Under the pieces are notes generated by a model. It saw only the letters and a list, made by a program, of their open reading frames with translations, was not told where the DNA came from and searched no databases. A DNA stretch of 63,239 nucleotides, counting the filler, from Hausera hauseri (lineage: Eukaryota), in assembly GCA_046269625.1 (NCBI GenBank). It is 12 parts of 12 records of this genome, joined end to end, with 100 filler letters (N's around TTAATTAATTAA, not from the genome) between each part and the next. Parts side by side here need not be neighbours in the genome. Positions count along the whole stretch, not along the records: positions 21,801 to 25,812 come from JBJURY010820974.1; 11 more parts are not named here. One strand, given 5' to 3'. Below, in pieces: positions 4,576 through 62,258 of the stretch (the stretch's first letter is position 1; the number at the start of each line of letters is the position of its first letter). The translations under genes and the position numbers were made by a program.

Positions 4576-6061
4576 AAAAATCTTGAAATTCATGCTATGA
4601 AAAAATCGAATAGTTTGAAGGATGGAGTTATTGTAAATATCAAAAATTTAGAAGAACAAGTGAAATATTCCTATAAACGAATAAGTGAATTGGAAAGTAT
4701 TTTATCAAACAAAATGCATGATAGCAATAATCCGAAATATTCTACGAAGGACGTACTTTCAGAAGCTCCTTCAGTTCCGTTGCTCTCTTCAGACGTAAGT
4801 AGATTGAAATTCAAATTATCCGAAGCTGGGAAACATCCAAAAACTTCAGCAGACAAATAATCATCTTGAAAATAAAAACAGTAAACTTATAAGCGAGAAT
4901 GAAAATTTAAATGGCCATATTAAAAGTCTAAAAGACAAACTAGAAATTGCCATCAATCGGGAACGGGCCTTTCAAATGAAACTCAAAACGCTAGAAAACC
5001 AGAAGGATGTTATTGCGGAACTGGAACAGAAATTCCACTGCAAAGACGATAATTATAAAGATCGTGAAAAGTCATACCAAAAACAAATTCAGAAAGTTCA
5101 TGCGTTGCCTATGAAAGGTATTAAAGGTCATTTCGACAAGTTCAGAGGGATAAAACAATCAACTTCGAATGAAAATCAGTTCATTTTTGATTCGACTACA
5201 TTCAAACCAATTCCAGGAAACCATATAAAAAGAGTCCGCACTAAATACAAAACAAAAAGGTATTGATTATACTACTGAATATATCTGTACGATAACTCCG
5301 TCATTAATGAATCAAAATCAGTGCAATAAGGATGCTAAACCAGTGAAATGTAGTAATGAAAGTATTGGGGACTGTAGTGAGATGGTCAGTGTGGTTCAGG
5401 GACACAGATCACCTTGGATATTAACCGACGACTTTCTCCTGTATAAAGGCATGAAAGAAAAGAAATCATATCAACTGATTCTAGATACATACTTTTCCGA
5501 ATCTCGTCGAACAATTATTAGTCTCAGAGCACGTTGGGATAAAATCCATCGTAATGAGGAGATTATGTCGACGCTGAAGCATATGTACTGGTCATGAAGC
5601 GGTGATAAATCGACGGAAGAAAGGTGCTAGTGAAGTGAAAAGGTCGGATTGTCAAGATACATTTTCGATGGAATCTGTTGACAAAGATTCCACAATGCAA
5701 CCGACAACGACGAAACCTATTTTTATGTACTTCACCAAAGAATGATAACCATATCGGTTTGTATTCCAGACAAAGAAACAAACCCATTGAAAGACAAGTC
5801 AGTAGTAGTACTGATAACACAGCAGGCCAAACAAGGGACTGGACAATTTTGGAGAACTTCCTTCTTTATAAAGGCGTAAAAGAAAAACGTAGTTGGCAAA
5901 ACATATTCGAAACTTACTTTCTAAATTTCGAACTATCGGTTGATAGCCTCAGAAACCATTGGGATGAAATTCGTGGTAGCAAAAATGACTTTTCGGCCTT
6001 GAAACATGAATATGAGGAGAGATGGTGTAAATTTGCCGGTTACGGTTACCAAATATATTGA
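4576..6061 (+). pseudogene. Coiled-coil protein with two Myb/SANT (TRF-like) repeats, broken by frameshifts and stops
   Basis: WILTDDFLLYKGMKEKKSYQLILDTYF..RTIISLRARWDKI and WTILENFLLYKGVKEKRSWQNIFETYF..SVDSLRNHWDEI fit the Myb W...W...RW spacing. Confidence 0.6.
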
Positions 6062-7099
6062 AAATCCTTTGGTTTCGATGGATGTTGATTCATTTGTGGA
6101 CAAACGTTCAGAATTTAAAAATATGAATAAAATGCACAGAAAAGAAATACCGGATATGAATTTAACAACCGTGTGCCTCTAAAATTCCGAAGATAAAAAT
6201 GTTCTATCTGAGAGACAAAAATGGGTAGTAAAAAACCACAAAAATTCTATCTCACAGTCATTCTAGGAGAAACACAGTTTGTGAAGTTGTGTGCGATGAT
6301 GTCACGGGTAAAAGTCGCGTAGAAGATGGTCTTCATTTTATGGGAAAAAGTGTTGAGAAATATTTTCCACTATTGTCACTGGAAGAAGATAGTTGGCTGA
6401 AATGTCTGTTAAAATTAGCAAGAGCGTGCAATGAATTGAATTTGGTGACTGACACATTGGTGATTTGTGAAAAGGGCGAATTCAAAAATAGTGAAATAAA
6501 TTTGAGAAAGTTGACGGCTCTCCTTAGAGCCACAATTATTGATTATGATGGGGTTCCGAATCCCCTTAAAAAATTTGCTATAATCCCTATTTTAGCCGAA
6601 AGGAACAGAGATTGCGAAAACAAAGTTAAAGTCTATCTCATTAGTCGGGTGGAAATTCCAATTCAGAACGGGATCAACGACATCGAATTCAAAAGTCGAA
6701 TCAGGAAAGACGAGATCGAGGATATAACAAAACCAACCAAAAAATGTCAATCATTCTACACTGTTGTATGCGGTATCATCAGTCGTCCCCGTTCTCCACT
6801 CTAGGCTTCCGTCTGATAAATATTACGTTAAAACCTATCGGGAAGGGTTGCAAAATAATCACGTTATCATATTAAACTATGTAAAGGTAAATATAGCATC
6901 AAATGATAAAAAAATAAGTCCATTTTTTCTCTAAAATCTTCACAAATACTTTGATATATTTATATTGCGCCAGATCCGAAATAACATCACAACAGATAGT
7001 TGGAGAGATTAAAAATATAAAAAATAACCAACTATCTGTTGACAGGTATCATCCACTAAATAAATATATAAATAAAACGTTTAAACATAGGTTAGTCTT

Positions 7100-7470
7100 A
7101 TCAGATAAGATGATGTTAAATCAAGAGAATCCTCCATTAGATCGTGACGTGCAGTACTTTGCTGAAAGGATTACTTGGGTGAGGAAATTATATTTGTATT
7201 TAGAAGATAATATGAACATGCTTGTTATGTCATCACCAGATATTTCTACAATTCCTTATGGTAGAAAACTTGTAAATATTTATAATAACACAAATGAAAT
7301 GATTGTTTATTATGAAAGTATGATAAATTATATTTTTACAAAATTCACTGCTAAGAAATTAATTAGATTGGAAGCTTCGATTTTTGTTCTAACAAAAGAC
7401 AATTTATATAGAGACTGCATACCCAATTTAGAACCGGAAATTCTCAATCTTTTTCTAGAAATAAGTAATA
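7100..7470 (+). pseudogene. DNAH5: Axonemal dynein heavy chain N-terminal (DHC_N1) fragment, DNAH5/8-like, inside chimeric ORF 6951-7691
   Basis: NPPLDRDVQYFAERITWVRKLY..GRKLVNIYN..LEASIFV..NLEPEILNLFLE resembles the DNAH5/8 pattern PPL.RN.PP.AG.I.W.RQL...NFDPQIL.L.RE. Confidence 0.6.
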
Positions 7471-7691
7471 TAATTCCGCAACTTAATGTTGCTTCAACTC
7501 CCAATGAAAAGCACATTATTAGAATTAACAGTGCTAGCCAAAATCCTCTAAAGTTAAAGGATCAAAAAACTGTCGGTGTTGTTGTAATGTCTGTTAGAAA
7601 CGTTATTAACTGCATGTGGAAATATTTGGCGTGTAAAGATGCAACACATGTCATTAAGGATGTTTTATTTAGGCAAATCGCTAAAGCTGAT

Positions 7692-8089: not shown

Positions 8090-8640
8090 GATACCGAAAC
8101 TACCCACAACAATAACAGCTCAAAGTATTGTTTATGTTGGCCCTTTAAAAGTAAAATGATCTAGAATGTATCGAAGGCACTAAAATATCAACGCGGGAGT
8201 ACATTCGAAGCATATCAACTTCATAATTTTTGCCTGGCGGTGTTGCAGAAGGTACCACAAACACAGGATGGATATCATTGGAGATTGATCAAAAGCCGGC
8301 AATCGAATTAGAATTCCAACGACTTATAATTATCAAATCGTCCCAGCTGTACGCTGAAAATGTCAATCGAATAGAGTAAAACAAAAATTATTGATTTGAA
8401 ATTTCAAATAAATGATTTGAAGTATTTTCGTATCATTGGTAATCGATCAATCGTTTGAGAACCAGAAGGTTCTCGGTGAATTCAACAAGGATATATTGGT
8501 ATCAAATTCCAATTTACAAAACCGGATTAAATGAAATCAATAAAGTTTCGAATTGAGATAAATGGCTGTGGAACAAAAACACCATCAGCAGTTACAGTAA
8601 GCCCTAGTACAACCGTCACTACTACACAAACGGGTAAAAT
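8090..8640 (+). pseudogene. Possible F5/8 type C (discoidin) domain remnant
   Basis: GWISLEIDQKPAIELEF and a terminal RIEINGC motif lie in different frames, with several stops. Confidence 0.35.
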
Positions 8641-8669
8641 ATTATTATTATATATAACGATGTTTCTTT

Positions 8670-9103
8670 GTCACATTGCCAGTCCATGTGGCTGCAGCCA
8701 TATATAGACCTTAATACGAAACTGCGGACCAACGCCAAGAATGATTTTGAGAAGGACCAGTTCAAGCTGTACAACAACAGTGTTTTTGGCAAGACCATGG
8801 AGAATATTCGCAACAAGATCAACATTGAGTTGGTCTCTCAGTGGAAGCGAGCAAAGAAGCTCATTGCCAAGCCCAACGTCTACAGCAGCACCATATATGC
8901 GGAGATCTTGGTTAGCATCCATATGCTGAAAATATCCTTGCAATTCAACAAGATAATATATGTTGGTATGGCAATACTTGAACTGTCAAAGACCCTGATG
9001 TACAAATACCACTATGAAATCATGGTCCCCACATTCAAGTCTATGCAGCTGATGTACATGGATTCTGATAGTTTCATCTATCAGATCCATACGGATGATA
9101 TTT
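8670..9103 (+). mobile_element. Polinton/Maverick protein-primed DNA polymerase B, catalytic fragment
   Basis: WLQPYIDLNTKLR, motif B KLYNNSVFGKTMEN, YVGMAILELSK and motif C YMDSDS. Confidence 0.9.
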
Positions 9104-11776: not shown

Positions 11777-11875
11777 NNNNNNNNNNNNNNNNNNNNNNNN
11801 NNNNNNNNNNNNNNNNNNNTTAATTAATTAANNNNNNNNNNNNNNNNNNNNNNNNNNNNNNNNNNNNNNNNNNNN

Positions 11876-12599
11876 ACGAGACAACAGAAGAGTCCGTAAA
11901 GAAGGCTAGAGCGGATCAGTGGGTAGGGCAAATCATAGGAGTTCAAGATGCAGCAATGTACTTTGAATATCTGCAAAACGACGAAGACAAGAGGCAGTAC
12001 AATAAGAATCCAGTGCTAATCAGCGAAGTCGCACCGACTATAATAAAACAGAAGCGCTCCGTCGGTAGATCACGGAAAACGCGGGAATAAATCGATTATA
12101 ATAGAGACTTAATTGGGGAATTGAGGCAAATATCCATACCAGCCTTCAGCATCGATGACGAGGAATTGAATGAACTCATGAAAAATTGATACGTATAGTG
12201 AACCATTTTAGTCTCAGTGGTGACACACTGGACGAAAAAGAGAAAGTTATATTTAACGCAGCCAAAGCTATGAAAAGTTTTCGGTGTAAATTATCCAGAA
12301 GTGCCTTGAGCGATGAAATGGTACTCGAGAAAATTATGGTAGAGAACACCGTAGAAGAGTTAAGGAAAGTAATGCTGTAATTGGCCGTTAAAACCAATCC
12401 GGTCCGAGATAACGAGTTCAATAGGGCAATTAGTTTGGCAAGAAGGGCTACGAAGAAACTGCCCCGAGAAGTGAACTGGTCCAAATTATTTGAAAAAAAA
12501 GAAGAACGGCAAAATAGGTCCTTCCTTGGCAATAATAGATTTGAAGACTTATTACAAAACGTTGCCGGAAATAAAAGAGGAACGAACCAAACTGTTTAA
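11876..12599 (+). pseudogene. Decayed ORF of unknown function directly upstream of the viral-type glycoprotein, probably from the same element
   Basis: Mostly open frames broken by single stops and frameshifts. It runs into the glycoprotein signal-like segment and has similar A-rich codon usage. Confidence 0.35.
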
Positions 12600-14888
12600 T
12601 TAACGTCTTATCCGTGATGATGTTAATAAGACAAATAGGTGCAGTTACGGTTTACGACTGTGACAAATATAGACTTGGCCAAAAATACTCATTAATGGAT
12701 TTAGAAACTTGCGAAGATGCGAGATCACATAAATTAGAAACAAAAGAGAAAAAATACGTGCTATATCAACAACGCGAACTAGTTACATTAGACGAAGTAG
12801 AATGTATGTTGCGACGATTTCGCAGCATTTTCCATTGTGGACTGGTAAATGGACACTCATCAATAATTAAGCCAACAACCCCACCTATTCCGATGAATTT
12901 AGAACGTCAGCATTGCAAGCAAGCTAGAGAGACGGGAAGAATAAAATGGGACGGCATGGAATTAGAAATGCAGCAAAAGAAAATAACCAGATTGTATAAA
13001 GTGGCGGCAGGGAGACTAGACATGTACACCGGACATTGTTATGGTGCAGAATACGATACTGGAAAAGGATTAGAGTCGAACATCGCAGTGGTTAATTTTT
13101 ATGAAAACGAAATGTTCATACAGAAGGTGATGTTCCAGAGCGTTACTAAACTTTACACAGAAAACCACAAGTGCCACATTCAGGATGGCACATGCTCCTT
13201 CCGATGCTTCGTAGTAATTTGGGAACCTCCAACCAAGACTGATTGCAACTTCATTAGAATTAAGGAGCATAAGTTCAACGAGACGACCGGAAAGCGATAC
13301 ATATGTAATACAGAAACAAATTCTAAAACGCGAGATGTAGCCGAACAATCTACGCCTACTATACTGATTTCGGATAATCATGGATTAGAATTTGTAAAGA
13401 ATGACGTGCTCACGAGATGCGATGTCATAATGTATGCCACCAATTACGAAGCATTTTTTGTAGCTGAGACAGAAATAAACGCCAGAACGTTCAAGCTCGA
13501 GACTCAAGACATTCGAATCGATTACTATCTAAAAATATAAACGACTATTTCTACTATAAAGGACAAGTGGGAATAACCGAATTGTACCACAAGATGACTG
13601 CAAATTAGACTTGGAGGCTATGAGAACCAAGCTGGCCTTAATATATGCCAATCCCGAACTAGCGTAACCAATAATTCCAATGTAAGAAGGCTCTTTCGGA
13701 CGAGTAACCGGAGAGGTTTTACTGACCTACGGATGTGAAAAGAAGGACATACCTATTAACATGGAAGAAAAGAGGTGTATACAAGAGCTTCCAGTGATAT
13801 ACCAAGACGTACCGAGATTGGTAACACCGATTACCAGACTATTGTTGGCAAACTCCACCCAACCGACAATTTTGAGAGACTGCAAGACAAGCTTAGGAGA
13901 GCCAATGTTCAAACGTAGCGAAACCGATTGGGTTAGTTTACCAAATGGCGGTATAATCACGCCGCCCACCAAATTAATGGAAACAAATTTAATGAAGGGG
14001 ATAACCGATGATAAATTCAAAGATACGGCCGCGAAAGGTATTTACCGACCAAAAGAGGTATAGGCGTTCCAACAATTTCTCGCTTTCCCTCGTCGGCGCA
14101 CACGCGAATTAATTAGAGCAATGCACACAATACTAGACAACTCAGGTTACCAAGCAAAGTGGGAATCATTACTTGGCGTCAACTACTACAAAAGGGTAAC
14201 TACGAAAATATTGTACAAAATTTGAGGAAATTCTTAGTATTCGGACAAGCCGCGTCAAGGTTCCTAGCAATCTATTTCTTAATTCAGATAGTAAAAGCGA
14301 TAATTCAAGCAATCATAAATGGATGAGATATTCACCTTAACAGGATTTTCGTGCAAAATTTTGACGGCTATTTTTACACCCTTCGGCAAATTCTTAAAGG
14401 CCTATGAAGAAAGTAGATGGAAAGCGGAGGTAGAACGTCATGTGGGCTACCACAATCGGAACCGCAAGAGAAGGCACATATTCAGCTATAAGCAAAAATT
14501 TATGAATACTAAAATACGGAGAAATAAATCTGACGATGACGAGCCTAAGGGAGGAGACGTTATTTCCCAGTCGAACAGGCACAAAAGCTACTCTGTTATG
14601 AAACTACCATTGTTAATACTACCGCCGACGGCCCCTATATACGAAGACTGTGAGAAGCAATCAATAAGCTCGTGCCGAACAGAAATCTCTCGAAAGCGAT
14701 TTAGTTTGGAGGATCCTTACGAAGGAACGAAGCACTATGGAGTGTTGAGTAAAGTCCATGAAGCGCGAAAACCGTCTATCTCACATCGTCGCTCAGCGGT
14801 CGACGATCACGGTATAATTTATTCACCTAGAATACCTAGACCAAACGAAATGCAATCAATATTTACTAGAATCCGTGAGGCACACTGA
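12575..14888 (+). pseudogene. Chuvirus-type (class III, gB-like) envelope glycoprotein with TM segment and tail; frameshifted endogenous copy
   Basis: Hydrophobic signal followed by VTVYDC..YSLMDLETC..YQQ..VEC..R.IFHCG..HSS..C. Later GRVTGEV..C..CIQELPV..TPITRLL..DC..PMF..W. TM FLVFGQAASRFLAIYFLIQIVKAIIQAIING at about 14230-14325. Confidence 0.8.
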
Positions 14889-18774: not shown

Positions 18775-20208
18775 TTGGCGAGTTTTGTTATTTGTGCTTC
18801 TCAAATAATTGGTTTGTTTAGATTTGCAACTTCTACAAATTTTCATGGTGCAGAAACACGAGGACCAGAATTGCCACAGTGTAATGCAGCATTATTTTGG
18901 ATACCAACATAATAGGACTCAATACTATGTATGTCCTGCATATGCGGTAGAATGCCGGACCGGTTACGAGGAATTTTACAACCAGCATAAACAGCATCTG
19001 GAATTGTTCACAAAATGGAAGAAAGAAGTATTCAACAGTAATACTCCAATGACAACAAGTGTCCCAAAGGTAAATAATATGTGCGGTTCCGCAACAGTAT
19101 CATGAAACTATGTAGCGGTATTATGGACACAAATAAAAAAGGATCCAATATTATATATGTCCGGGATGCGAGACTGTATACATTGCAGATTAAATACAGT
19201 TCTATTATGATTACAAACATCATTTGAGTCACTTCGCATCAAAATGAAAAGAAGGTCATCTATAATGAGCAGCATAATATTGATGCCTCTGCTTCACAGC
19301 ATGGTGTTTCACAGTATTTTGCTTCGCGGTATCCCGCGGGGGCTGCAGCAGCAGCTGCAAAGTATATTAGAAAATTGAAACGCGCGGCAACATGCGCAGC
19401 TGCATCAGGCGCAACGGCTCCACCAAAAAGTCAAAGACAGCGGCCAGTTTATACAGCAATGTGAAGAAAGAAGTGCGCAGATATGTTATTGATGCACCTG
19501 GTCAAACAACTCTCCGAGAAACAGAGGGAATTCTTCAGGACAATATGACTGAGCTCAAAGCCCTTAAAGTGAACATGAAACTGGAGGCTACATACGTCAA
19601 TGGTTATGGCGAAGAATCCAAAAGGGTCTTCAATACTCAAAATAGGTCCATATTGGAAACAACCAATATAGTGGAATGGTTTAATGAGGAACATGGGAAT
19701 CTGATCCATGAGGTTGAGGAGAGCCAGGATAAATAGTGGATGGACCCTAGCAATTATCAAGTAACTGATGGTGCGTGTGCACAAGTACCCCTTATGCAAG
19801 GCAGTTCATATATTCAGCTTCCTGGATGGATTCGGCAGAAAAAGGCATGCATAAATGTCCATAATGATGACAACAAGTGTTTCATGTATGCCATTCTATA
19901 AAAACTCCTACGGGATCAACATAATGCTTCACGAGTTTGGCTATATAAGGATGTGCAGCACAACTACGACTTCCAATGTATTACGTTCCCGTCATCCATA
20001 GATGAAGTAAAGAAGTTCAGTCGAATCAACAATATATCAATCAACATCTTTGGATTGGATGATAAGGACAAATTTTATCCCCTGCAAATATGTGATGTTA
20101 AATTGGAAGGTCATAGGGATCTACTCCTACTAAACGATGGAGAAAAGAAACATTACGTATGGATAAAGAACTTCGACCGTCTAGTCAGATCCCAAATTAC
20201 AATTACCT
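18775..20208 (+). mobile_element. Polinton pPolB N-terminal region, pseudogenised (copy 1)
   Basis: SGWTL, GSSYIQLPGWIRQKKACINVHNDDNKCFMYAIL, FP..IDEVKKF..N.ISINIFG, HYVWIKNFDRL. Upstream are duplicated Cys/His domains. Confidence 0.88.
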
Positions 20209-21800: not shown

Positions 21801-22213
21801 CATAGCCCACTGTCCGAATAGTGAGTATGACAATTTTCCTACTGCTAAACATACTGACAGAACAGTTATAATCTCGGTGCGAGAAACACCTTGGGCTCAT
21901 AAGTACATTCGATAGCCATTGCAAATTTGCGAAGATTGATTGACTAGATATTTAACTGAGTCGTTACTCTGATTCATTGAATTTGGTCAATGACAATTCC
22001 GAATGGTAGTTTCTTACTGTTTTCAGTTGTGATTGGTTTGCGATAACCCATAATGAGATACTTTCCCAACTGAAATATGATGCACGTAAAATCCGGTGGA
22101 CATTTGTGGGCATACTACTTCGGCTTCCATTGATTAAAATCTAGTGAATTAATACACTCGGTAACATGTCCGAGGTAGTTGATATTGGATAACATTATAG
22201 AAGCAGTTTTCAT
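21801..22213 (-). pseudogene. TATA-binding-protein-like gene inside a Polinton, divergent from the ATPase; in-frame stops and one frameshift; truncated by the contig end
   Basis: Manual translation from ATG 22213: MKTASIMLSNINYLGHV..LDF..FTCIIFQLGKYLIMG..IQ*IRVTTQL..INLRKFA..CTYEPKVFLAPRL, then after a frameshift CSVSMFSSRKIVIL. This parallels both TBP repeats (ALIFSSGKMVCTG, IQNMV, YEPELFPGL, LIFVSGKVVLTG). Confidence 0.78.
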
Positions 22214-22267
22214 ACTGTAGCAATATTTATGTGTGTGGCGTGAATATAAACAAAACATGTGACGAAA

Positions 22268-22935
22268 TGTGTCATATTAATATAAAGCTGCAGAATAATG
22301 CAATTTTTCAGATTGTTTGCCCCAGTCGAAGTGGTAAAAAACACTTTGTTTCTAAACTGTTGCAAAACTACAGTGGCATATTTTATTCGCCGCAGTTCAA
22401 TCACATTTACTGGCATCAGGGTGTTTGTGGTGATAATGAAGAGTCCGGTCTGATACATCAGGAATTTTGTAAATTAAAATCGATGACAGTAATAGATGGG
22501 TTTGATATGAATTGGTCTGAAAGATTACGCAGCGGTGACGTTATTTATTGACGATTTATTTCAAGAAATTGAAAAGCAAACCGACTTCAACAACCTGTTT
22601 ACGAAGATTGCACGACACAGTGGTGTGATGGTTATTTTCATTATTCAAAACATGTTCCTCAGGGCGGATGGCATCGGACACGAAATATAAACGTACACTG
22701 TTTGGTGTTGTTCAAAATCCTCGTGATCAAACTATCATAGATTATGTGCACGCCAAGCATTTTCTCACAACTACGCCTACTTAATCGACGCATACATGAT
22801 GCTACGACCACGCGACACGGATACTTGTTCATTGACTTTGCACAACAGTGTCCAGATGACATTAGTGTACAAAAAGATATTTTCAATCCGAAAGTTGTGC
22901 ATATCTATATACAAATTCGAAAATCGACACGATGA
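22268..22935 (+). mobile_element. Polinton A32-like packaging ATPase pseudogene
   Basis: Degenerate Walker A IVCPSRSGKK, Walker B IDDL, LFTKIARH, IQNMF, NPRD and HGYLFID across frameshifts. Confidence 0.88.
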
Positions 22936-23190
22936 TGATCATAGTAGTACTAAAAATTAAGCATTTCCGCAAAACAATTGTTAAATTTAAACCAGTGAAA
23001 CAGGTGTTCAAAATGAAACATGCATCATAAGCAGCAGCAGCAGTAAAACGTAACGCTTCAGTTAAGCGATTAACAAATTCAGTGCTTCGAACAACAACAA
23101 CAATAATATTAGTAGTGACACACAAATTACCCTCAAAGTGGCAAAAATTATATAAATCTTCGTTGCAGCATCAATATGCACTGATGAAAC

Positions 23191-23519
23191 ATGCGTTTCA
23201 AACGTAGTCAATTGTACTTTATTGCTTTGCTTAAAGCACCGTCAAAACATGAACGAATCATGCTACGATCATTCCACAATTTGTAATAGACAATTTAATG
23301 GAAATTTTGTGCAATATTGTTGTGGGTCACACTGACATTGGTAGTGTAAAGCGAAATTTACTAAAGTATCAAAAACCATTCATTGGCCTTGCCAACGCTC
23401 GGGGTAAACGACTGAAACGCGAAATCACGTACTAGCAAGATGTTGGATTCCTTGGTGCAATTTTATTAGTTGTCATGTCATTACAGGGTAATATCATCGG
23501 TTGCAACAGTTTAGTATAA
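23191..23519 (+). mobile_element. Small Polinton ORF (putative virion core/membrane protein), decayed
   Basis: IDNLMEILCNIVVG..LLKYQK..LA..Q(D)VGFLGAILL resembles the recurrent Polinton ORF ending in a Q-x-GGFL hydrophobic tail. It lies between the ATPase and integrase. Confidence 0.55.
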
Positions 23520-23624
23520 ACGATGAATGTAAGTATATGTTGACTTAGCGGTATGGGTGCACGGTTTTCATAATTTTTCAAACTTTACCGAATCTTTCAT
23601 TCACTTTTCGTTCTAATTGTTGTA

Positions 23625-24696
23625 ATGCAAACAAAAGCGACATCGACAACACCGACAATGGACGTATGGTTCGATTCACATCATCCCGTCGGGTATACTG
23701 GAGTCGACAAACTGCCAAAGATATTTAAACAGAGTAGACGACAAACCAAACATTGGCTAAGGAAACAATTGGTATACAGCCTGAAAAAAGCGGTAAGAAA
23801 ACGGTTTCCCACTCTAACATACCGTGCTGTAGGCGTAAACAACGTGTGGCAAATGAATCTAATGGAAATGATCCCGCTCGGTATCATTAACGATTGGTAT
23901 CAGTACGTGCTGACATGTATTGATGTGTTTCGTCGTTTTGTACGTGAAATTTCTGTCAAATTAAAATCCGATAAAAAAGTTGCTGACGCCGTTCATACAT
24001 TAATAAACAAACAAGAACAACCACCGAAGGATGTAGAAATGGATTTAGGTAAAGGATTCTACAATTACAATGTTGCATCGGTCGGGAAACGGTTCAATGT
24101 AAGCCACTACTCTGTGTTTACTCAATACACGGCTATACTCGCTGAACGAGTCAATCGAACACTGAGCAGTCTACTGAATCAATTCTTTACCAAACAAGGC
24201 AATAAACGTCGGGTAGATGTACTACCGAATATTACTTATACATACAGTCATTCGACACATCGTGGAATCAACGGATTACGACCGGTTGATGCAACTGATA
24301 ATTTGGTTATGTGGCTCTATCAAAATCGAAAGCAACGACAACAAGCAACAATTAAATGTGCAAAATTTAATTGGTGATTACATACGTATTCCGAGGTTAG
24401 ATTCAACGCCATTGATCAAGAAATTCAATCGGAACTGGAACGATGATGTATTCCGAATTTCTGTAATCAACACAAAACAAATACATGTCATGTAAGTTTT
24501 AGATAATGAAACCTGTGAAGAAGAAATACGTGGTAAATTCTACGAATAGGAACTGAAGGTGCTGCCTGAGAAACCTGATGTATATCGTATTTAGGAAATT
24601 CTACGTTCACGTAACAAAGGCTCGAATAAATAATTTCTCGTCAAGTGACACGGATACACTACACTGAGTTGGATATTTGTATCGCAGATTGAATGA
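23625..24696 (+). mobile_element. Polinton rve integrase with C-terminal chromodomain, pseudogenised
   Basis: WQMNL, YVLTCIDVF, DLGKGF, LAERVNRTL, then IGDYIRI..NW..VFRI..IRGKFYE..FLVK*HGY..SW. Confidence 0.9.
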
Positions 24697-25717
24697 GAAT
24701 TTAAGTAGTATTTGGCAGTAACAGATCATTATCACAACAAGACAACAACGATACTGCTGAACAATTTATCATGAACTTGGATCAACCGGATGATTTACGC
24801 CGGAGAGCTTGGGAAGTGGCTTTGATGGAATTTACATTTACAGTACGTACGAACAGTGACAGTTACTATTGCAGTGGTATCTACTATTCACTGTATTGCA
24901 GAAATTTTCTGCTTCAAGTTGTTTGCAGTAAACATTTAATGTTCACAATTATACGCGACAAATTTACATCTTTTGTTCAAATCGTCGTTTGATACTAAAA
25001 CACCGACATCCAGTTGAATTGCAATTTAAATCCAATAACCGATACTCAGTCGTGGGGTTTTCAATCTGTCAATGTACGCTCAAAAGGTTTGCAGCTAGGT
25101 TGGCATCTCATAACTAGTGAAAAATTAAACTTTGCCGAAAATGTGAAAACCCATTGAACTGGCAAATGAAAAAATCAACCTTTCACTTGTATACTACCGG
25201 ATATGGCTTACTGTTGGAATGGAAAATAGAACTGTGTGTGTTTATCCTGGAAGTGACTAAATTGGCTCTAAAATTATTTGAATTAAACTCCATTAGTCGT
25301 ATGTCGCTAAAACTACATGATAATGTTATATATTTTGCTTCCTATAAACTATTGGCACGGAATCTGGGTTTTACGAAACGAGAATTCGGTCAAACCGGCA
25401 GCGGTCGATTTATTGTCGCTAAATAAAAACCACAACTCTAAAGCATTTCATCAAATGAACATTTTTACGGATCTGATCGAATCTGCATTTATTGATAAAG
25501 AACGTAAACAACTATAGGCTTCTATTACACTGAACTCTGAGGCGTACAAACAACTGCCGAAACTGCTCACGTTAATATTATCCGGCCCATGTATTTATCG
25601 TTATCTCACAATAATGTGCACAGCATTTAAGTGTATATATTAGGTGAATTTTTGAAACCCATTACATTTCTGCTTGAAGCAACGTCACATCTGACGCTAC
25701 ATTTTCGACGTCGATAA
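24693..25717 (+). mobile_element. Polinton minor capsid (penton) pseudogene
   Basis: N-terminal SN.S..N.TAEQF..L..P..L...WEVALMEF; C-terminal IFTDLIE..YRPMY..LTLHFRRR*. Confidence 0.8.
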
Positions 25718-25729
25718 TAAACAAACTGT

Positions 25730-25732
25730 GTC

Positions 25733-39444: not shown

Positions 39445-42009
39445 TTCTTGATTTCATCTAGGGATGGAGGGAATGTGATACACTGAAAGTCGTAGTTGTG
39501 TTGGAGATCATTATATAGCCACATTCGCTCTGCTGCATGTTTTTGATCCCGTACGAGTTTACATAAAATCACATACATGCAGCACTTGTTGTCATCATTA
39601 AGGATATTGACACATGCTTTTTATTAACGATCTATTCCGGAAGCTGTATATATGAACTGCCTCGCATCGAGGAGTATCTGTATACATATATAAGCAGTCT
39701 TTTGATGGTTGCCAGAGTCCATCCACTATTCTTATCCTGGCTCTCATCGGCTTCACGGATCAGCTTCGTATGCTCTTCATGATGCCAATCAGCTATATTT
39801 GTGTTTTCAGTATAGGCCTATTTTTGGTCTTGAAGGTCCTGTTTGATTCTTTAGCATCGACATTGACGTATGCGGCCTCAAGTTTCATATTAACCTTAAG
39901 GGCCTTGAGCTCGGTCATATTGTCCTGGAGGATCACCTCTGTTTCTTCCTTTGCATATTCCAGGAACTCCTTGATAGTTCTTTTCCCAGCTGCATCAATG
40001 ACACATTTTCCGATTTTTTCTTTAATACAGCAGCATCAACTGGCCTTTATCTTTGGCTTTTTGGCGGAGCCGCTACGCCTGTTGAGCCTGAGGCATCTGA
40101 TGGACCTGGTGGGCATTTTACTCCTGAATCTCGATGTACTGATGCAGGCTGTACTGCAAGCTGTACTGCTGCATCTGGCTGTACTGCACGCTGTACTGCT
40201 GCATCTGGCTGTACTGCAGACTCTACAACTGGCCTATGCACATTATATATGATCTTCTTGGACTTTGATGCAAAGTAAGTCAAATGATGCTTGTGATCTT
40301 CATAGAACTGCATGCATTTGCCATCACATACAGTCTCACATCCTGGGTAAATATAATAGAGGATCCTATTGAATTTGTCGCCATAATAGCTCCTCATGGT
40401 ATTGTAACAGTTCTCAGGGTTATGTATTGTACATGTGCAATATACATATGAACTTCACCTTTGGTTTTCTTTTGGCATGAAAGACGTTGTTGACATATTG
40501 GTATAGAATATTTGTTTTTCGACTTCGCGAAGGAAATCAAGTGTCGTTTATGAACATTGTAGAATTCCTCGTACCCTGTCATGCACACAACCTCATACGT
40601 AGGGCATATATAATATTGAATGCTTTTGTACATATGTACAAAGTATTTCTTCATAATACTGTGGCAATTGTCCGGCTCATGGATTGGAGCCAAGCATTCT
40701 CGGTATAGTTTGCACATCTAAACAAGGCAATTATCTGATGAATATAAAATAAGAGAAGTTACCATTCTCTAAAGTGAATTTGGAAATAATGCAAAATGTG
40801 GCTATGTCAGTGGGCACTGTCTAATTTTGATAATTGATGCATTAAAACGAAACACATGTATCGAAATAATTTTGATGAAGTAAAACGAAACACATGTAAG
40901 GAAATATTTTTAATGTTGGAGTAAGTTGGGCACTGCATATTGTTGCCAATATGTTGTATTATCAACATAATGTATATTTGTTTTAATGCATCAAATGCAT
41001 GAACTTATCACGTACATATCGCTTGTCATGCGTTTGTTTTAATGCATTAAATGATTTAAATATCTGGCGGCGCCATATTCGAATAGGTTTTCGACCATGG
41101 GGATTCTAATGCCGTCATCGGATTCTTTGAATAATGCACGCTTCACTGATTATTCGAGTTCAAATCTATATTTCTTCGAGTTCGAATAATGTTCTCGTTC
41201 ATCTAATATTATATTCACATTCCACATACATGACTTCATATCCCGCCCCGCTATTACATTTATTGATTTCCGCTTCACTGCGCTTTAAATGCACATTTTG
41301 CTTATTTCGAAATATTGATTTTATGGCTACATAGTACATTTTCATGACATAATTTTTATGCACATAGGGGTTTTCATATATTCGGAATCGAGTACCAGTG
41401 TTACATTTTTCGAGTAGTTCGAACTTTGATATTTGAGCTCGAAAATCTTCGAATTTCGAATTTTCGACTCGAAATTCGAGTTCCGCATACTTGATTTCCT
41501 ATCCGTTCCCACTCAATGTTATCGAATTTTGCTTCCTTGGTACTTGAAAACATGGAAAATATAGCCCTTTTTCACTTTCGATCGATATTGAACGATAACT
41601 AATCAATAAACTTAAATTCTAACTGCACATTCATATATTACACCATGTTTCCTTTCGATTGCACCCGGTCACATGTCCCAATCATCCATTTTGGAAATAT
41701 TGGAAATCCAATATTATTGATTTCTGCACACTTGCACATGTGCGGCACACCTGCACTGTGCATCAATCTATGCGCACTAATGTGCACTATCGATTAGCAC
41801 CCTGTCCCGATCGATTCGATCAATACTGCACTGTGCAGCGATCGATTTGTCAAAAGCGCAAAAATGTGCATAGCAACGGTGTCTAGCAGCACAGTTGCTA
41901 GGCACTTTACCAATCAATAGTTCACAGTGCGCACTATCGACTGGCACATGTGCAATATCGATTCGCACACCTTCCGGGAGGCGGGACAGAACGGCCTTTA
42001 TACACTACT
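39445..42009 (-). mobile_element. Polinton left arm (copy 2): terminus AGTAGT at 42009, TIR/subterminal region, pPolB N-terminus (40765 down to 39445)
   Basis: Homologous to 17084-20208. SGWTL, GSSYIQLP, ACVNI.NDDNKC. It ends at ..TACACTACT. Confidence 0.88.
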
Positions 42010-59231: not shown

Positions 59232-62200
59232 ATGCTGATCACATTCGTATCTGTTGCACTAATCATCAGTGAGGCAATTGGACTCGAACAGAACATTTTG
59301 TTGAACAAGCCTGTCTTCGGTAACAACAATCGACCAGGCTATGTAAACAATGGGAAAACAGATGAATGCAATTGGATTGACGCTCACAGTCCAACGTGGA
59401 TAATCTTCGAAATGGAGGCAATTTACCATGTGAAAAATTTGACAATTTGGAACCGTTCATGTAAGTTTATTTAACGTATCCAAACAACAAAAACTGCATT
59501 TTTTATTTTAGTTCAATCCAAAGTCCCATTGTCAATATACGTTGGAGACAAATTTCGAATATGTAATGTGAAAGAAAATTTGAGAAGCTATACTTTGTGC
59601 AACGACAATGTGTATCAGTCGGGCCAATCAACGCATGTTGTTTGTAAAAATGGTGGAGTCACAGGACAATATTTGGCAATTGTCAAAGGAAAATTTGACC
59701 CTCAATTTAAAAATGAAAAAACCTTACTTTGTGAAATTGAAGCCTCTGGAGAAAAAGTCGCAGAAGCACGAACAAAACCTACAGTGCAAAGCGAAAGCAT
59801 AACGATAGATAAAGAATACTTTGTAAGTTTTTACAGTTATATATAATATTTCCTGGGATTTTTTATGAATTCCTTCTTATGACATTTTCATCGCAAAATA
59901 AATTAGATATTAGTTAGATTATTTTTAAATATCCCATAACGTTAATTTCTCTCGTCCGTACAGATTGTTATAACCGTTTTATTTTAGACAATCACCAAAG
60001 ACATCATTCGGGAGTCAGAAACTGTACACGCAATGGCCAATTCGAATAAAATAATATATCTGGATAAAAGATGTCAAGCAGTTGTTTGGAATCCAAATAT
60101 CAGTGGCCATGTGTACGGTGCTGTTTGTCAAACAAATGATAAGAAAGGACGAATTGCAGTGTTTGGAAAACGTAACTTCTTAAACGTTTTTCCAGCAAAT
60201 AGTGCAATTAAAAAGAACATATTTAAGTGGCTGTCAGGTGTTGATAATCCAGTGATTGTTAGTGGTGGAAGTATCAGAACGATAGATGATGTACGTGAAA
60301 AATTAAAACCGGGCTACATATTGGATTACGATGTTTATCATGCCTACGATTCCTCTGTTAATGATGCTATGAAATCTTTGCTACTCAATAATACTATTTC
60401 AATGATATTTCACATAACATTCTGGAATGCTCCACAAGGTGAAATTAGACAATCGTATTTAAAAATTTTGAACATTTTCAATGTTGACTGGTCATGGTCA
60501 GATATGGGAGGAGCGACTGTTACTCTTTCACCTGCCACCATGAATGACAATATGATGGATCTTGTTGGTAAGTTAGAAATTGTAGGAAAAAATCACAATT
60601 ACTTAATGAAACATGGTAACGATGCAGCTGCGCAAGTCGATTATTTCTCCAATACAAGGGAAATAACGTCACAACTTAATAAAACTATTTTTCAATTGAT
60701 AGAAAAATACGATAAGTTACTTAGTTGGATTTGTCCCTGTGATTCAAATCAGGCAACAGACTACGGTGATAGATCCGTGATATCTACTTTCGGAATAATA
60801 GCCAATAGCCAACTTCTTCGGAACTCAAATTACAAACCACCTTGCGTTTCAAATAGCGGATTTCAATTAGATTTTGATGAGCCTCCACGAAAATCTATTG
60901 TTACTCTGAACCTTACAGGCATTACTGGATATACAATGAATCCAACTGGGTATTACTTAAAACCCGGTGATACTTTGCGATACAAAATTCATCAAAGTTC
61001 TGGTAATTGGAAGATGTCAATTGGTTGCCACTCGGATGATATAGGAAATTGGCATCGGTCTTTACTTCGCTATCCATATGTCGTGTTACCCAATCGAGGT
61101 CTTGACAAGGAAGGTGAAATATATTCCGGTTTTGGAGGAATTATATGGTTAGTAAATGACAATGTAAACGACAATATTACAATAACCCTTTCAAATGTCG
61201 TAGCTGCACCTTTCTTTAATGTACGAGATCCATCATCGGTATCACAATGGGAAACAAATAGAAATAATGTAGCTCCTTGGGCTATAATAGCAGGTGATAA
61301 TTTGGTCATCTGTGAGAGGTCTGAAACTGTGAGAGGATTTTCCAAGGAACATTTACTAGATGTCACATTGGATAATTGGGATAAGGTAATTCGAATGGAT
61401 CAATATTTGAAATACCGTGATTGGCAAAGTTCAAGACCAGAAATCATAGTTCTTGATATTCAAATATCAGCTGGTGTTGGTCATAGTGGTTACCCATTTA
61501 TGTCCACTTTTGGCTGGTCGGACAGCATATTTAATGTGCAAGGAATTAGAACGTGGGGCAGTTGGGGAATGTGTCACGAAATTGGACATAACATGCAAGA
61601 AAATGCATGGACGCTTCCTGGTGCACGTGAAGTAACAAATAACATGTTTTGTCTATTTAACTATGCCATATTATGGAAAGTACAAACTAGAGGAGTAAAT
61701 TTGCAAAACACTAATGTAAATGAAGTCAAGTCTTACTTAGACAGAGGAAGTCCATTCGGTGTTTGGAAAGGTCAACCATTTACAGCTCTCATGTCTTACG
61801 CTCAACTTGCCAACCATTTCGGTTGGGGATTCTATAACAAAGTATTCAAATACTATGTAGAAAACAAGTTAAATCCATGGGAAGATAATAATAAAATATT
61901 CACATGGATCAACACAACTAGTACAGTTGCTAGGCAAAATCTAATTCCCCTTTTTGAATTTTGGGGATTTCCAATTGACGATTCTTTAAATCAGTCGTTG
62001 AAATCATTACCATGTTTCTTACCAGACTATTTCTTTATTCAGATAAGCGAAACCAGACGAAACTACATAACTGAAAAATACAAAGATTGTCAACGTACAG
62101 CAAGCTCAAAGGAAGATATTGATTTGACCCGAATTAACAATCCTCAAGTACGTCAAAATTTTGTGAGTGTTATGAAAAAATTGCAAGTGTCACCAAAATC

Positions 62201-62258
62201 AGTATCTAATATTGACAAATTGTACAACGAATATCTGACACAGTTGTCTTCGAAATAA
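59232..62258 (+). CDS. Secreted M60-like (TCAF/enhancin-related) zinc metallopeptidase with N-terminal F5/8-fucolectin-like domain; exons 59232-59460, 59512-59822 and 59988-62258 (about 936 aa)
   Basis: Signal peptide MLITFVSVALIISEAIG. GTAAGT..TTTTAG introns of 51 and 165 nt keep the frame. Lectin-like PTW..I.NR..I.VG..C..C..GQY..LCEIE. M60 motifs PTGYY, IGCHSD, FGGII, APW, DIQISAG.GHSGYP, WGMCHEIGHN..EVTNN. Confidence 0.88.

Follow-up and report, generated by a model that had tools for sequence, protein, structure and literature searches.

The TBP-like gene and its neighbors

The sequence considered here, hereafter the window, is a 63,239-nucleotide (nt) stretch of Hausera hauseri DNA (assembly GCA_046269625.1) in which 12 contigs are strung together by N-TTAATTAATTAA-N linkers. 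The contig at positions 21801 to 25812 (JBJURY010820974.1) harbors an approximately 4-kb stretch of a Polinton/adintovirus-like element, among whose genes is one resembling that of the TATA-binding protein (TBP). An earlier note, made from the sequence alone, had assigned this gene to a minus-strand frame beginning at ATG 22213 and had quoted four TBP motifs from it. All four motifs are present, but only three occupy that frame, while VSMFSSRKIVIL lies in another, which is indicative of a frameshift within the gene. ATG 22213 does exist, but the first residue of the closest natural open relative, P0006, aligns to ATG 22195, which is the likelier start. The gene, a pseudogene of a compact Polinton family, is accordingly placed at positions 21801 to 22195 on the minus strand; it carries three in-frame stops (22117, 21976, and 21946) and one frameshift (near 21870 to 21856), and its 3′ end is cut by the contig edge. 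Because the contig edges fall inside the element, approximately 28 3′ codons of the gene are missing and no element end is present.

The remaining 116-residue piece, with X at the stops, has TBP as its sole Pfam match (E value of 0.0012 and 19.1 bits, below the cutoff of 22.9), and a phmmer search of the broken piece against the PDB yielded no TBP match. P0006, which comprises 160 amino acids (aa) and shares 68% identity with the window copy (E value of 7e-38), scores 59 bits against PF00352 (cutoff of 22.9) and matches solved TBPs by sequence (E value of 2e-14), thus bearing out the proposed TBP identity. The second stirrup glutamate is not retained in the window copy (YEPKVF), which is dead and can no longer function. 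A candidate host-type TATA-like box, CATAAATA, is located on the minus strand at positions 22224 to 22231, 36 nt upstream of ATG 22195, and may have served the TBP gene.

The plus strand encodes, in the order previously claimed, a packaging ATPase, a small open reading frame (ORF), an integrase, and a penton, all of which are broken. The A32-type packaging ATPase pseudogene (22267 to 22935) contains five frameshifts, and a relative of it matches Pfam Pox_A32 (E value of 3.8e-6); its ATG at 22267 is separated from ATG 22213 by 53 nt, close to the gap of about 55 nt noted earlier. The small conserved ORF (23191 to 23501), likewise broken, was recognized by its likeness to relatives and belongs to cluster C4 (18/81 loci). 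The rve integrase (23625 to 24696; Pfam rve E value of 1.6e-7), with a C-terminal chromodomain-like part, has suffered one frameshift and five stops. The chromodomain attributed to it is seen by Pfam in a relative (E value of 1e-4) but not in the decayed window piece, which aligns at 50% to the chromodomain part of that relative. The heavily broken minor capsid protein (penton) pseudogene (24702 to 25717) matches a profile of its relatives (E value of ~1e-6), and the folded penton of a relative resembles those of mavirus (Z score of 13.0) and Sputnik (Z score of 12.6). The rve integrase, packaging ATPase, and minor capsid protein are hallmarks of Polintons and adintoviruses. A (CAT)n microsatellite (25731 to 25812, plus strand) occupies the end of the contig.

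The earlier note had also judged the TBP-like gene to be about as decayed as its neighbors. Breaks per 100 aligned codons amount to 3.9 to 4.0 for the TBP-like gene, 2.4 to 2.5 for the ATPase, 2.0 to 3.4 for the small ORF, 1.8 for the integrase, and ~3.4 for the penton (the last being uncertain, at low identity). These rates are alike within counting noise, that of the TBP-like gene being the highest (3.9 to 4.0 versus 1.8 to 3.5). A sequencing-run comparison (X1) placed 6,830 contigs on the window stretch, mostly at 85 to 95% likeness, and the TBP part was covered like the core genes, which points to a many-copy family; X1 is possibly the run from which the window itself derives.

A compact TBP family carried by Polinton-type loci

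A search with P0006 returned 240 clusters, and the proteins among the best 120 of these are mostly 145 to 165 aa in length. A 105-row alignment was used to find family loci, of which 173 were recovered from metagenomes; the results below cover the best 80. The median length of TBP in these loci is 154 aa, and one of the longer members, at 357 aa, is without a second Pfam domain. Neighboring genes encode the ATPase (26 loci), the integrase (15), the penton (13), a putative major capsid protein (11), pPolB (8), the protease (7), and PLA2 (15). The family loci thus share the ATPase, rve integrase, and penton (present in the window) as well as pPolB, protease, and PLA2 (present in relatives) with Polintons/Mavericks and adintoviruses. 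Neither pPolB (8/81 relative loci) nor protease (7/81) is found on the 4-kb window contig, and the same is true of the putative double-jelly-roll major capsid cluster, C9 (~410 aa, 11 loci), which is labeled by size and position only, having neither a Pfam match nor a PDB sequence match. A core Polinton gene is present in 36/80 loci and in 18 of the 21 loci of at least 4 kb. Together with the X1 variant copies spanning both TBP and core genes, these neighbors support the view that the TBP-like gene belongs to the element.

The head-to-head arrangement of TBP and ATPase described for the window is real but is not conserved among relatives: in 23 of the 26 loci possessing both genes they are in tandem, with the ATPase downstream, 2 loci are divergent like the window, and 1 is arranged otherwise. 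Head-to-head order was accordingly rejected as a functional trait. Locus scans with a single protein query yielded no loci. In the viral_contigs collection the family is nearly absent, only a giant-virus TBP having been found, and a search of this collection with the capsid alignment gave no match. The taxa of the Atlas TBP clusters rest on one to eight members each and were not used for host range.

In a tree of 25 family and 26 cellular rows the family grouped together (SH-aLRT of 95), and a C-lobe tree of 22 family and 21 cellular rows did likewise (support of 85/77); the second tree dropped four cellular rows that were badly trimmed in the first, plus one duplicate, and lacks three family rows without an anchor motif. 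The window copy is sister to P0006, no family row falls inside the cellular TBPs, and a grouping of the window copy with mammalian TBPL2 was rejected (p-AU of 0.011). The gene thus does not appear to be nested among the cellular TBPs covered, although branches are long and TBP-related factor 2 (TRF2), insect and other arthropod TBPs, and archaeal TBPs lie outside the trees.

These trees and loci bear on one alternative, namely, that the gene represents a chance fragment of a host TBP or TRF adjoining a Polinton. Although none of the other four genes is broken as often per codon, the orientation differs from that of most relatives, and the trees do not extend to TRF2 and insect TBP, a stray fragment fits poorly with a compact protein that recurs in 240 clusters, with the core Polinton genes on 36/80 loci (18/21 of those ≥4 kb), with a tree in which the 25 family rows all fall on the same side, with the rejected TBPL2 grouping, and with X1 copies that extend over both the TBP part and the core genes. 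This explanation is highly improbable and, as far as the present data go, is refuted.

Structure prediction agrees with the TBP fold. The model of P0006 (pLDDT of 95.6) is a two-lobed saddle that aligns to human TBP (5fur_A) with a Z score of 13.0 and a root mean square deviation of 2.6 over 146 residues; in a search of 48,161 chains the top five matches were all TBPs (Z scores of 13.0 to 10.8, 146 to 147 residues aligned), followed by a match with a Z score of 6.4, and an hhalign comparison of the family with TBP gave 99.2%. Both half-repeats are present, as the earlier note had stated, but they are unequal, the C-lobe being complete and the N-lobe lacking both helices. The N-lobe strands are kept in the P0006 model, in which no helix precedes residue 85, and the helix-bearing N-lobe segments measure 37 versus 47 and 57 versus ~70 residues in the family (medians of the 75 rows with all anchors) and in cellular TBPs, respectively.

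In TBPs, a C-lobe glutamate pair binds TFIIB, while N-lobe helix 2 binds TFIIA, TAF1, Mot1, and Brf (Ravarani 2020, PMC7221094). Among the 105 relatives, the first glutamate (E97) is retained in 103 and replaced by aspartate in 2, the second (E99) is retained in all 105, and the same holds for F40, F101, and F117. The first N-lobe phenylalanine of the canonical four has no conserved counterpart in the profile alignment, F20 (96/105) being nearby. At several positions which, judging from alignments, probably line the DNA face, the family is fixed to residues foreign to cellular TBPs, namely, N6 (103 of 105), R46 (103), M48 (105), S72 (104), R105 (105), and N115 (105). With cellular TBP and TRF proteins (PF00352) the family therefore shares the two-lobed saddle, the YEPE(L/I)FP stirrup, and three phenylalanines, but it differs from them in its low structural identity (21 to 24%), in the absence of the N-lobe helices and of an N-terminal tail, and in its DNA-face residues. 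No TFIIB-like gene was detected in the family loci, which are partial (the longest covering 18.4 of 23 kb), either by Pfam on representative ORFs or by phmmer with the TFIIB-like protein of locus L095 (described below).

The YATAAAC box and its candidate reader

Upstream sequences of genes in the family loci (266 de-duplicated 100-nt regions out of 318) contain TATAAAC in 87 cases, compared to 5.7 expected from shuffles. The box occurs on the sense strand with a peak at −40 to −31, its density being 7.6 per kb at −60 to −21 versus 0.34 elsewhere. YATAAAC precedes 22/23 ATPase, 11/14 integrase, 9/13 penton, 9/10 putative major capsid, 4/5 protease, and 10/12 PLA2 genes, which amounts to 65 of the 77 core genes, with no antisense copies. 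Before TBP genes, in contrast, it was found once in 59 regions, where TATAWAW (26 regions) and TCAKT (22 regions) occur instead. Of 130 YATAAA sites upstream of virion-group genes, 110 continue with C, compared to 1 of 25 upstream of TBP genes; the 77-gene core group was chosen by function, while the 120-gene virion group adds clusters C2, C4, and C20 and was defined after the motif had been seen. The C-lobe of TBP contacts the 5′ half of the TATA box and the N-lobe its 3′ half, which hints that the remodeled N-lobe may face the changed position 7 of the box.

The window itself retains a TATAAAC box on the plus strand at 22245 to 22251, 37 nt upstream of position 22282, where the first residue of the relatives' ATPases aligns, and another at 23515 to 23521 (plus strand), 110 nt upstream of the integrase ATG (23625). 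Two further sites in the window fall within genes, and no box was found upstream of its small ORF or penton. Polinton-type loci found via pPolB or ATPase and without a detected family TBP, 24 in number (L117 being omitted as its ATPase is identical to that of L116), served as controls, and in these the box precedes 2 of 69 core genes. The G+C content of these controls is mostly 26 to 42%, similar to that of the family, with four loci at 51 to 59%, and no shared non-AT word stood out upstream of their core genes. Locus L086, which was found via its ATPase, carries both the TBP gene and the box. The proposal that a TBP-like factor serves the element's own promoters, put forward in the earlier note, gains support from this distribution and is, as judged from sequence, likely.

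We propose that the TBP-like gene is probably an early gene whose product would read YATAAAC and recruit host TFIIB and RNA polymerase II (Pol II) to late genes. In such a scheme, the TBP gene would be expressed first, by host machinery acting on an ordinary TATA/initiator promoter, and its product would then bind YATAAAC via its altered DNA face, its retained glutamates recruiting host TFIIB and Pol II to the packaging, integrase, and capsid genes. As the docking helix is gone, the protein would escape TAF1, Mot1/BTAF1, and TFIIA, and a single 150-residue protein could thus provide a 15- to 20-kb element with an early-to-late switch.

Several observations weigh against this proposal. TATAWAW also precedes 26/120 virion-group genes, and many integrase boxes are positioned at −53 to −96, gene starts being first-methionine guesses. 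In locus L120, TATAAAC (5598 to 5604) lies 39 nt upstream of the ATPase, and no TBP was found in the 12.3 kb of this locus, which possibly represents a counterexample or one whose TBP gene lies off the contig. The gene and the box may both mark a single lineage; since support for separating family from non-family loci in the ATPase tree is low (55), independent contrasts are few, and the Fisher p-values are too strong. Most controls are distant elements on incomplete contigs and may have a TBP outside the sequence covered. An element-encoded TFIIB is possible given that the family loci are partial, and host TBP might read TATAAAC, which is one base off the TATA consensus.

The last point leads to an alternative which we regard as unlikely, though deserving of consideration, in which host factors read the box, be it a Forkhead factor or host TBP treating the box as a weak variant of TATA, and the element TBP acts otherwise, for instance by damping host transcription as a decoy, either through titration of TFIIB or through occupancy of TATA boxes of the host. 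The Forkhead consensus RYAAAYA fits ATAAACA, and 73% of 132 sites have A at position 8, but 18% of sites end in G. Retention of the TFIIB glutamates and loss of the regulatory helix would also suit a decoy, and the box of L120 occurs without a detected TBP. The strict sense orientation and the −40 to −31 peak are, however, features of a core promoter rather than of an enhancer-type site, a host-only reader leaves the C preference before virion-group genes and its near absence before TBP genes unexplained, and the fixed DNA-face changes imply a specific target.

Co-occurrence of gene and box gives no sign of the effect exerted, and loss of the N-lobe helices could block assembly of a preinitiation complex. 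It is therefore conceivable, if distinctly improbable, that the protein is a sequence-specific repressor which, bound to YATAAAC, holds virion genes off in latency, or an architectural DNA-bending factor in replication or packaging. A glutamate pair kept in 103 to 105 of 105 relatives would be superfluous for a pure blocker, and the box occupies the TATA-box position of genes that mostly lack another TATA box; both observations speak against this reading.

Parallels, accessory genes, and significance

Herpesvirus TBP mimics (KSHV [Kaposi's sarcoma-associated herpesvirus] ORF24, PMC12529657; human cytomegalovirus UL87, PMC8360532) would resemble the family in combining a viral TBP fold with late genes preceded by a TATA variant that differs in one base, and with the use of host Pol II. 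KSHV ORF24 reads TATT, binds Pol II via an additional domain at its N terminus, and depends on five further viral proteins (PMC12529657), whereas the family protein, at ~150 residues, lacks the extra domain, keeps the TFIIB glutamates, and is associated with YATAAAC rather than TATT. The structural match of the family to BcRF1 is weak (E value of 3.7e-3). By analogy, the family most likely works like the herpesvirus mimics without being a member of that group, given its different box and the lack of the extra domain. Nucleocytovirus TBPs are also virus borne and have also lost the N-lobe regulator signature (Ravarani 2020, PMC7221094), and the best BFVD matches of the family are giant-virus TBPs (E value of 5.5e-8, 15% identity). 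According to the same study, nucleocytovirus TBPs are mostly accompanied by a TFIIB of viral origin, and their glutamates vary (~40% kept), whereas in the present family the glutamates are near invariant, no TFIIB was seen in the partial loci, and the helices are deleted outright.

A 22.9-kb Polinton, L095 (G004:C86), encodes on its minus strand (11777 to 13041) a different TBP-like gene directly followed by a TFIIB-like gene. The former product (189 aa; Pfam TBP, 44 bits) is unmatched by the family profile, while the latter (252 aa; Pfam TFIIB, 27 bits over the cutoff) possesses a zinc ribbon. No YATAAAC was found in L095 before the ATPase, integrase, penton, capsid, or protease genes. This locus points to Polintons having acquired basal factors on another, separate occasion.

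Other genes recur in the family loci. Cluster C2 (e.g., L030:3360-3857), a conserved 160-aa gene of 25 loci that often adjoins TBP, has no Pfam match; its acidic FIDFEAF..IKELC motif and C-terminal His/Cys motif may reflect a DEDD-type nuclease fold. It was set aside as a TBP partner because it carries the box itself in 17/22 cases. The small, box-less genes of clusters C3, C12, C18, and C19 (e.g., L031:667-1236), located near TBP, have a similar-looking beta-rich C-terminal pattern and, judged by eye, perhaps encode single-stranded-DNA-binding proteins. Accessory genes specify a ubiquitin-conjugating enzyme, a dual-specificity phosphatase, RING fingers, leucine-rich repeats, and KilA-N (L024:225-719, L007:4008-4316, L040:1710-2168, L067:13315-13893, L034:1918-3327, and L065:218-1216), the leucine-rich repeat genes carrying the box in 5/5 cases. 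Seven Polinton contigs (L086 to L090, L097, and L100) had been assigned to the bins of four bacterial genomes, where they appear to represent eukaryotic-virus contamination.

The other contigs of the window contain pieces of a dynein heavy chain, an Ig I-set protein, a long terminal repeat (LTR) element, and a chuvirus-type fusion protein, a mixture suggestive of an invertebrate animal as the source, provided that the contigs derive from one organism. The dynein heavy chain pieces are located at 26677 to 31019 and 6918 to 7688, one being an unbroken frame of ~1,450 codons, and an open 756-aa M60/enhancin-like peptidase (Pfam E value of 9e-53) occupies 59988 to 62258. The chuvirus-type (Monjiviricetes) fusion glycoprotein piece and a retroviral-type protease share one contig (12575 to 13540 and 15510 to 16670), a pairing paralleled by LTR elements with a captured envelope. 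Fragments resembling pPolB are present on three further contigs (8614 to 9090, 19629 to 20195, and 39444 to 39835), and the segments 19517 to 19661 and 39802 to 39946 are 80% alike; no link between these fragments and the TBP-bearing element could be drawn.

In the full-text literature searched, TBP was tied to Polinton-type elements only in the legends of Starrett 2021 (PMC8502044; preprint 10.1101/697771), although subscription papers, Repbase, and part of the Starrett supplement lay outside the search and an earlier mention is possible. In the available part of that study, TBP is a figure-legend label for non-animal MELD viruses (Fig. 5), which may or may not belong to the present family; the same part has no TBP label in the animal-map text (Fig. 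S2) and no occurrence of "promoter" in the main text. PMC11071296 and 10.64898/2026.06.19.733378 mention neither TBP, TATA, nor promoter, PMC12220804 matched in its reference list only, and the searched literature holds no account of how Polintons control transcription.

The TBP-like gene is thus real and element borne, and it is likely to be a late-gene switch. The broader picture, to which we would give an even chance, is that many animal-type Polintons run an early-to-late cascade on one 150-residue TBP stripped of host-regulator surfaces, with a private YATAAAC box and host TFIIB, and that Polintons have taken up basal factors at least twice, the TBP and its box constituting a natural orthogonal TBP-promoter pair. 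The question of whether Polintons behave as transposons or as viruses that follow a programmed cycle is an old one. A factor of their own, paired with a fitting virion-gene box, allows a direct test of it, and the box also offers a means of marking late genes by sequence within the many Polinton ORFs without an assigned role. If the proposal is true, the family would represent a convergent counterpart of the TBP mimics of herpesviruses and, as a natural TBP reduced to a minimum, would show which surfaces transcription initiation can spare.

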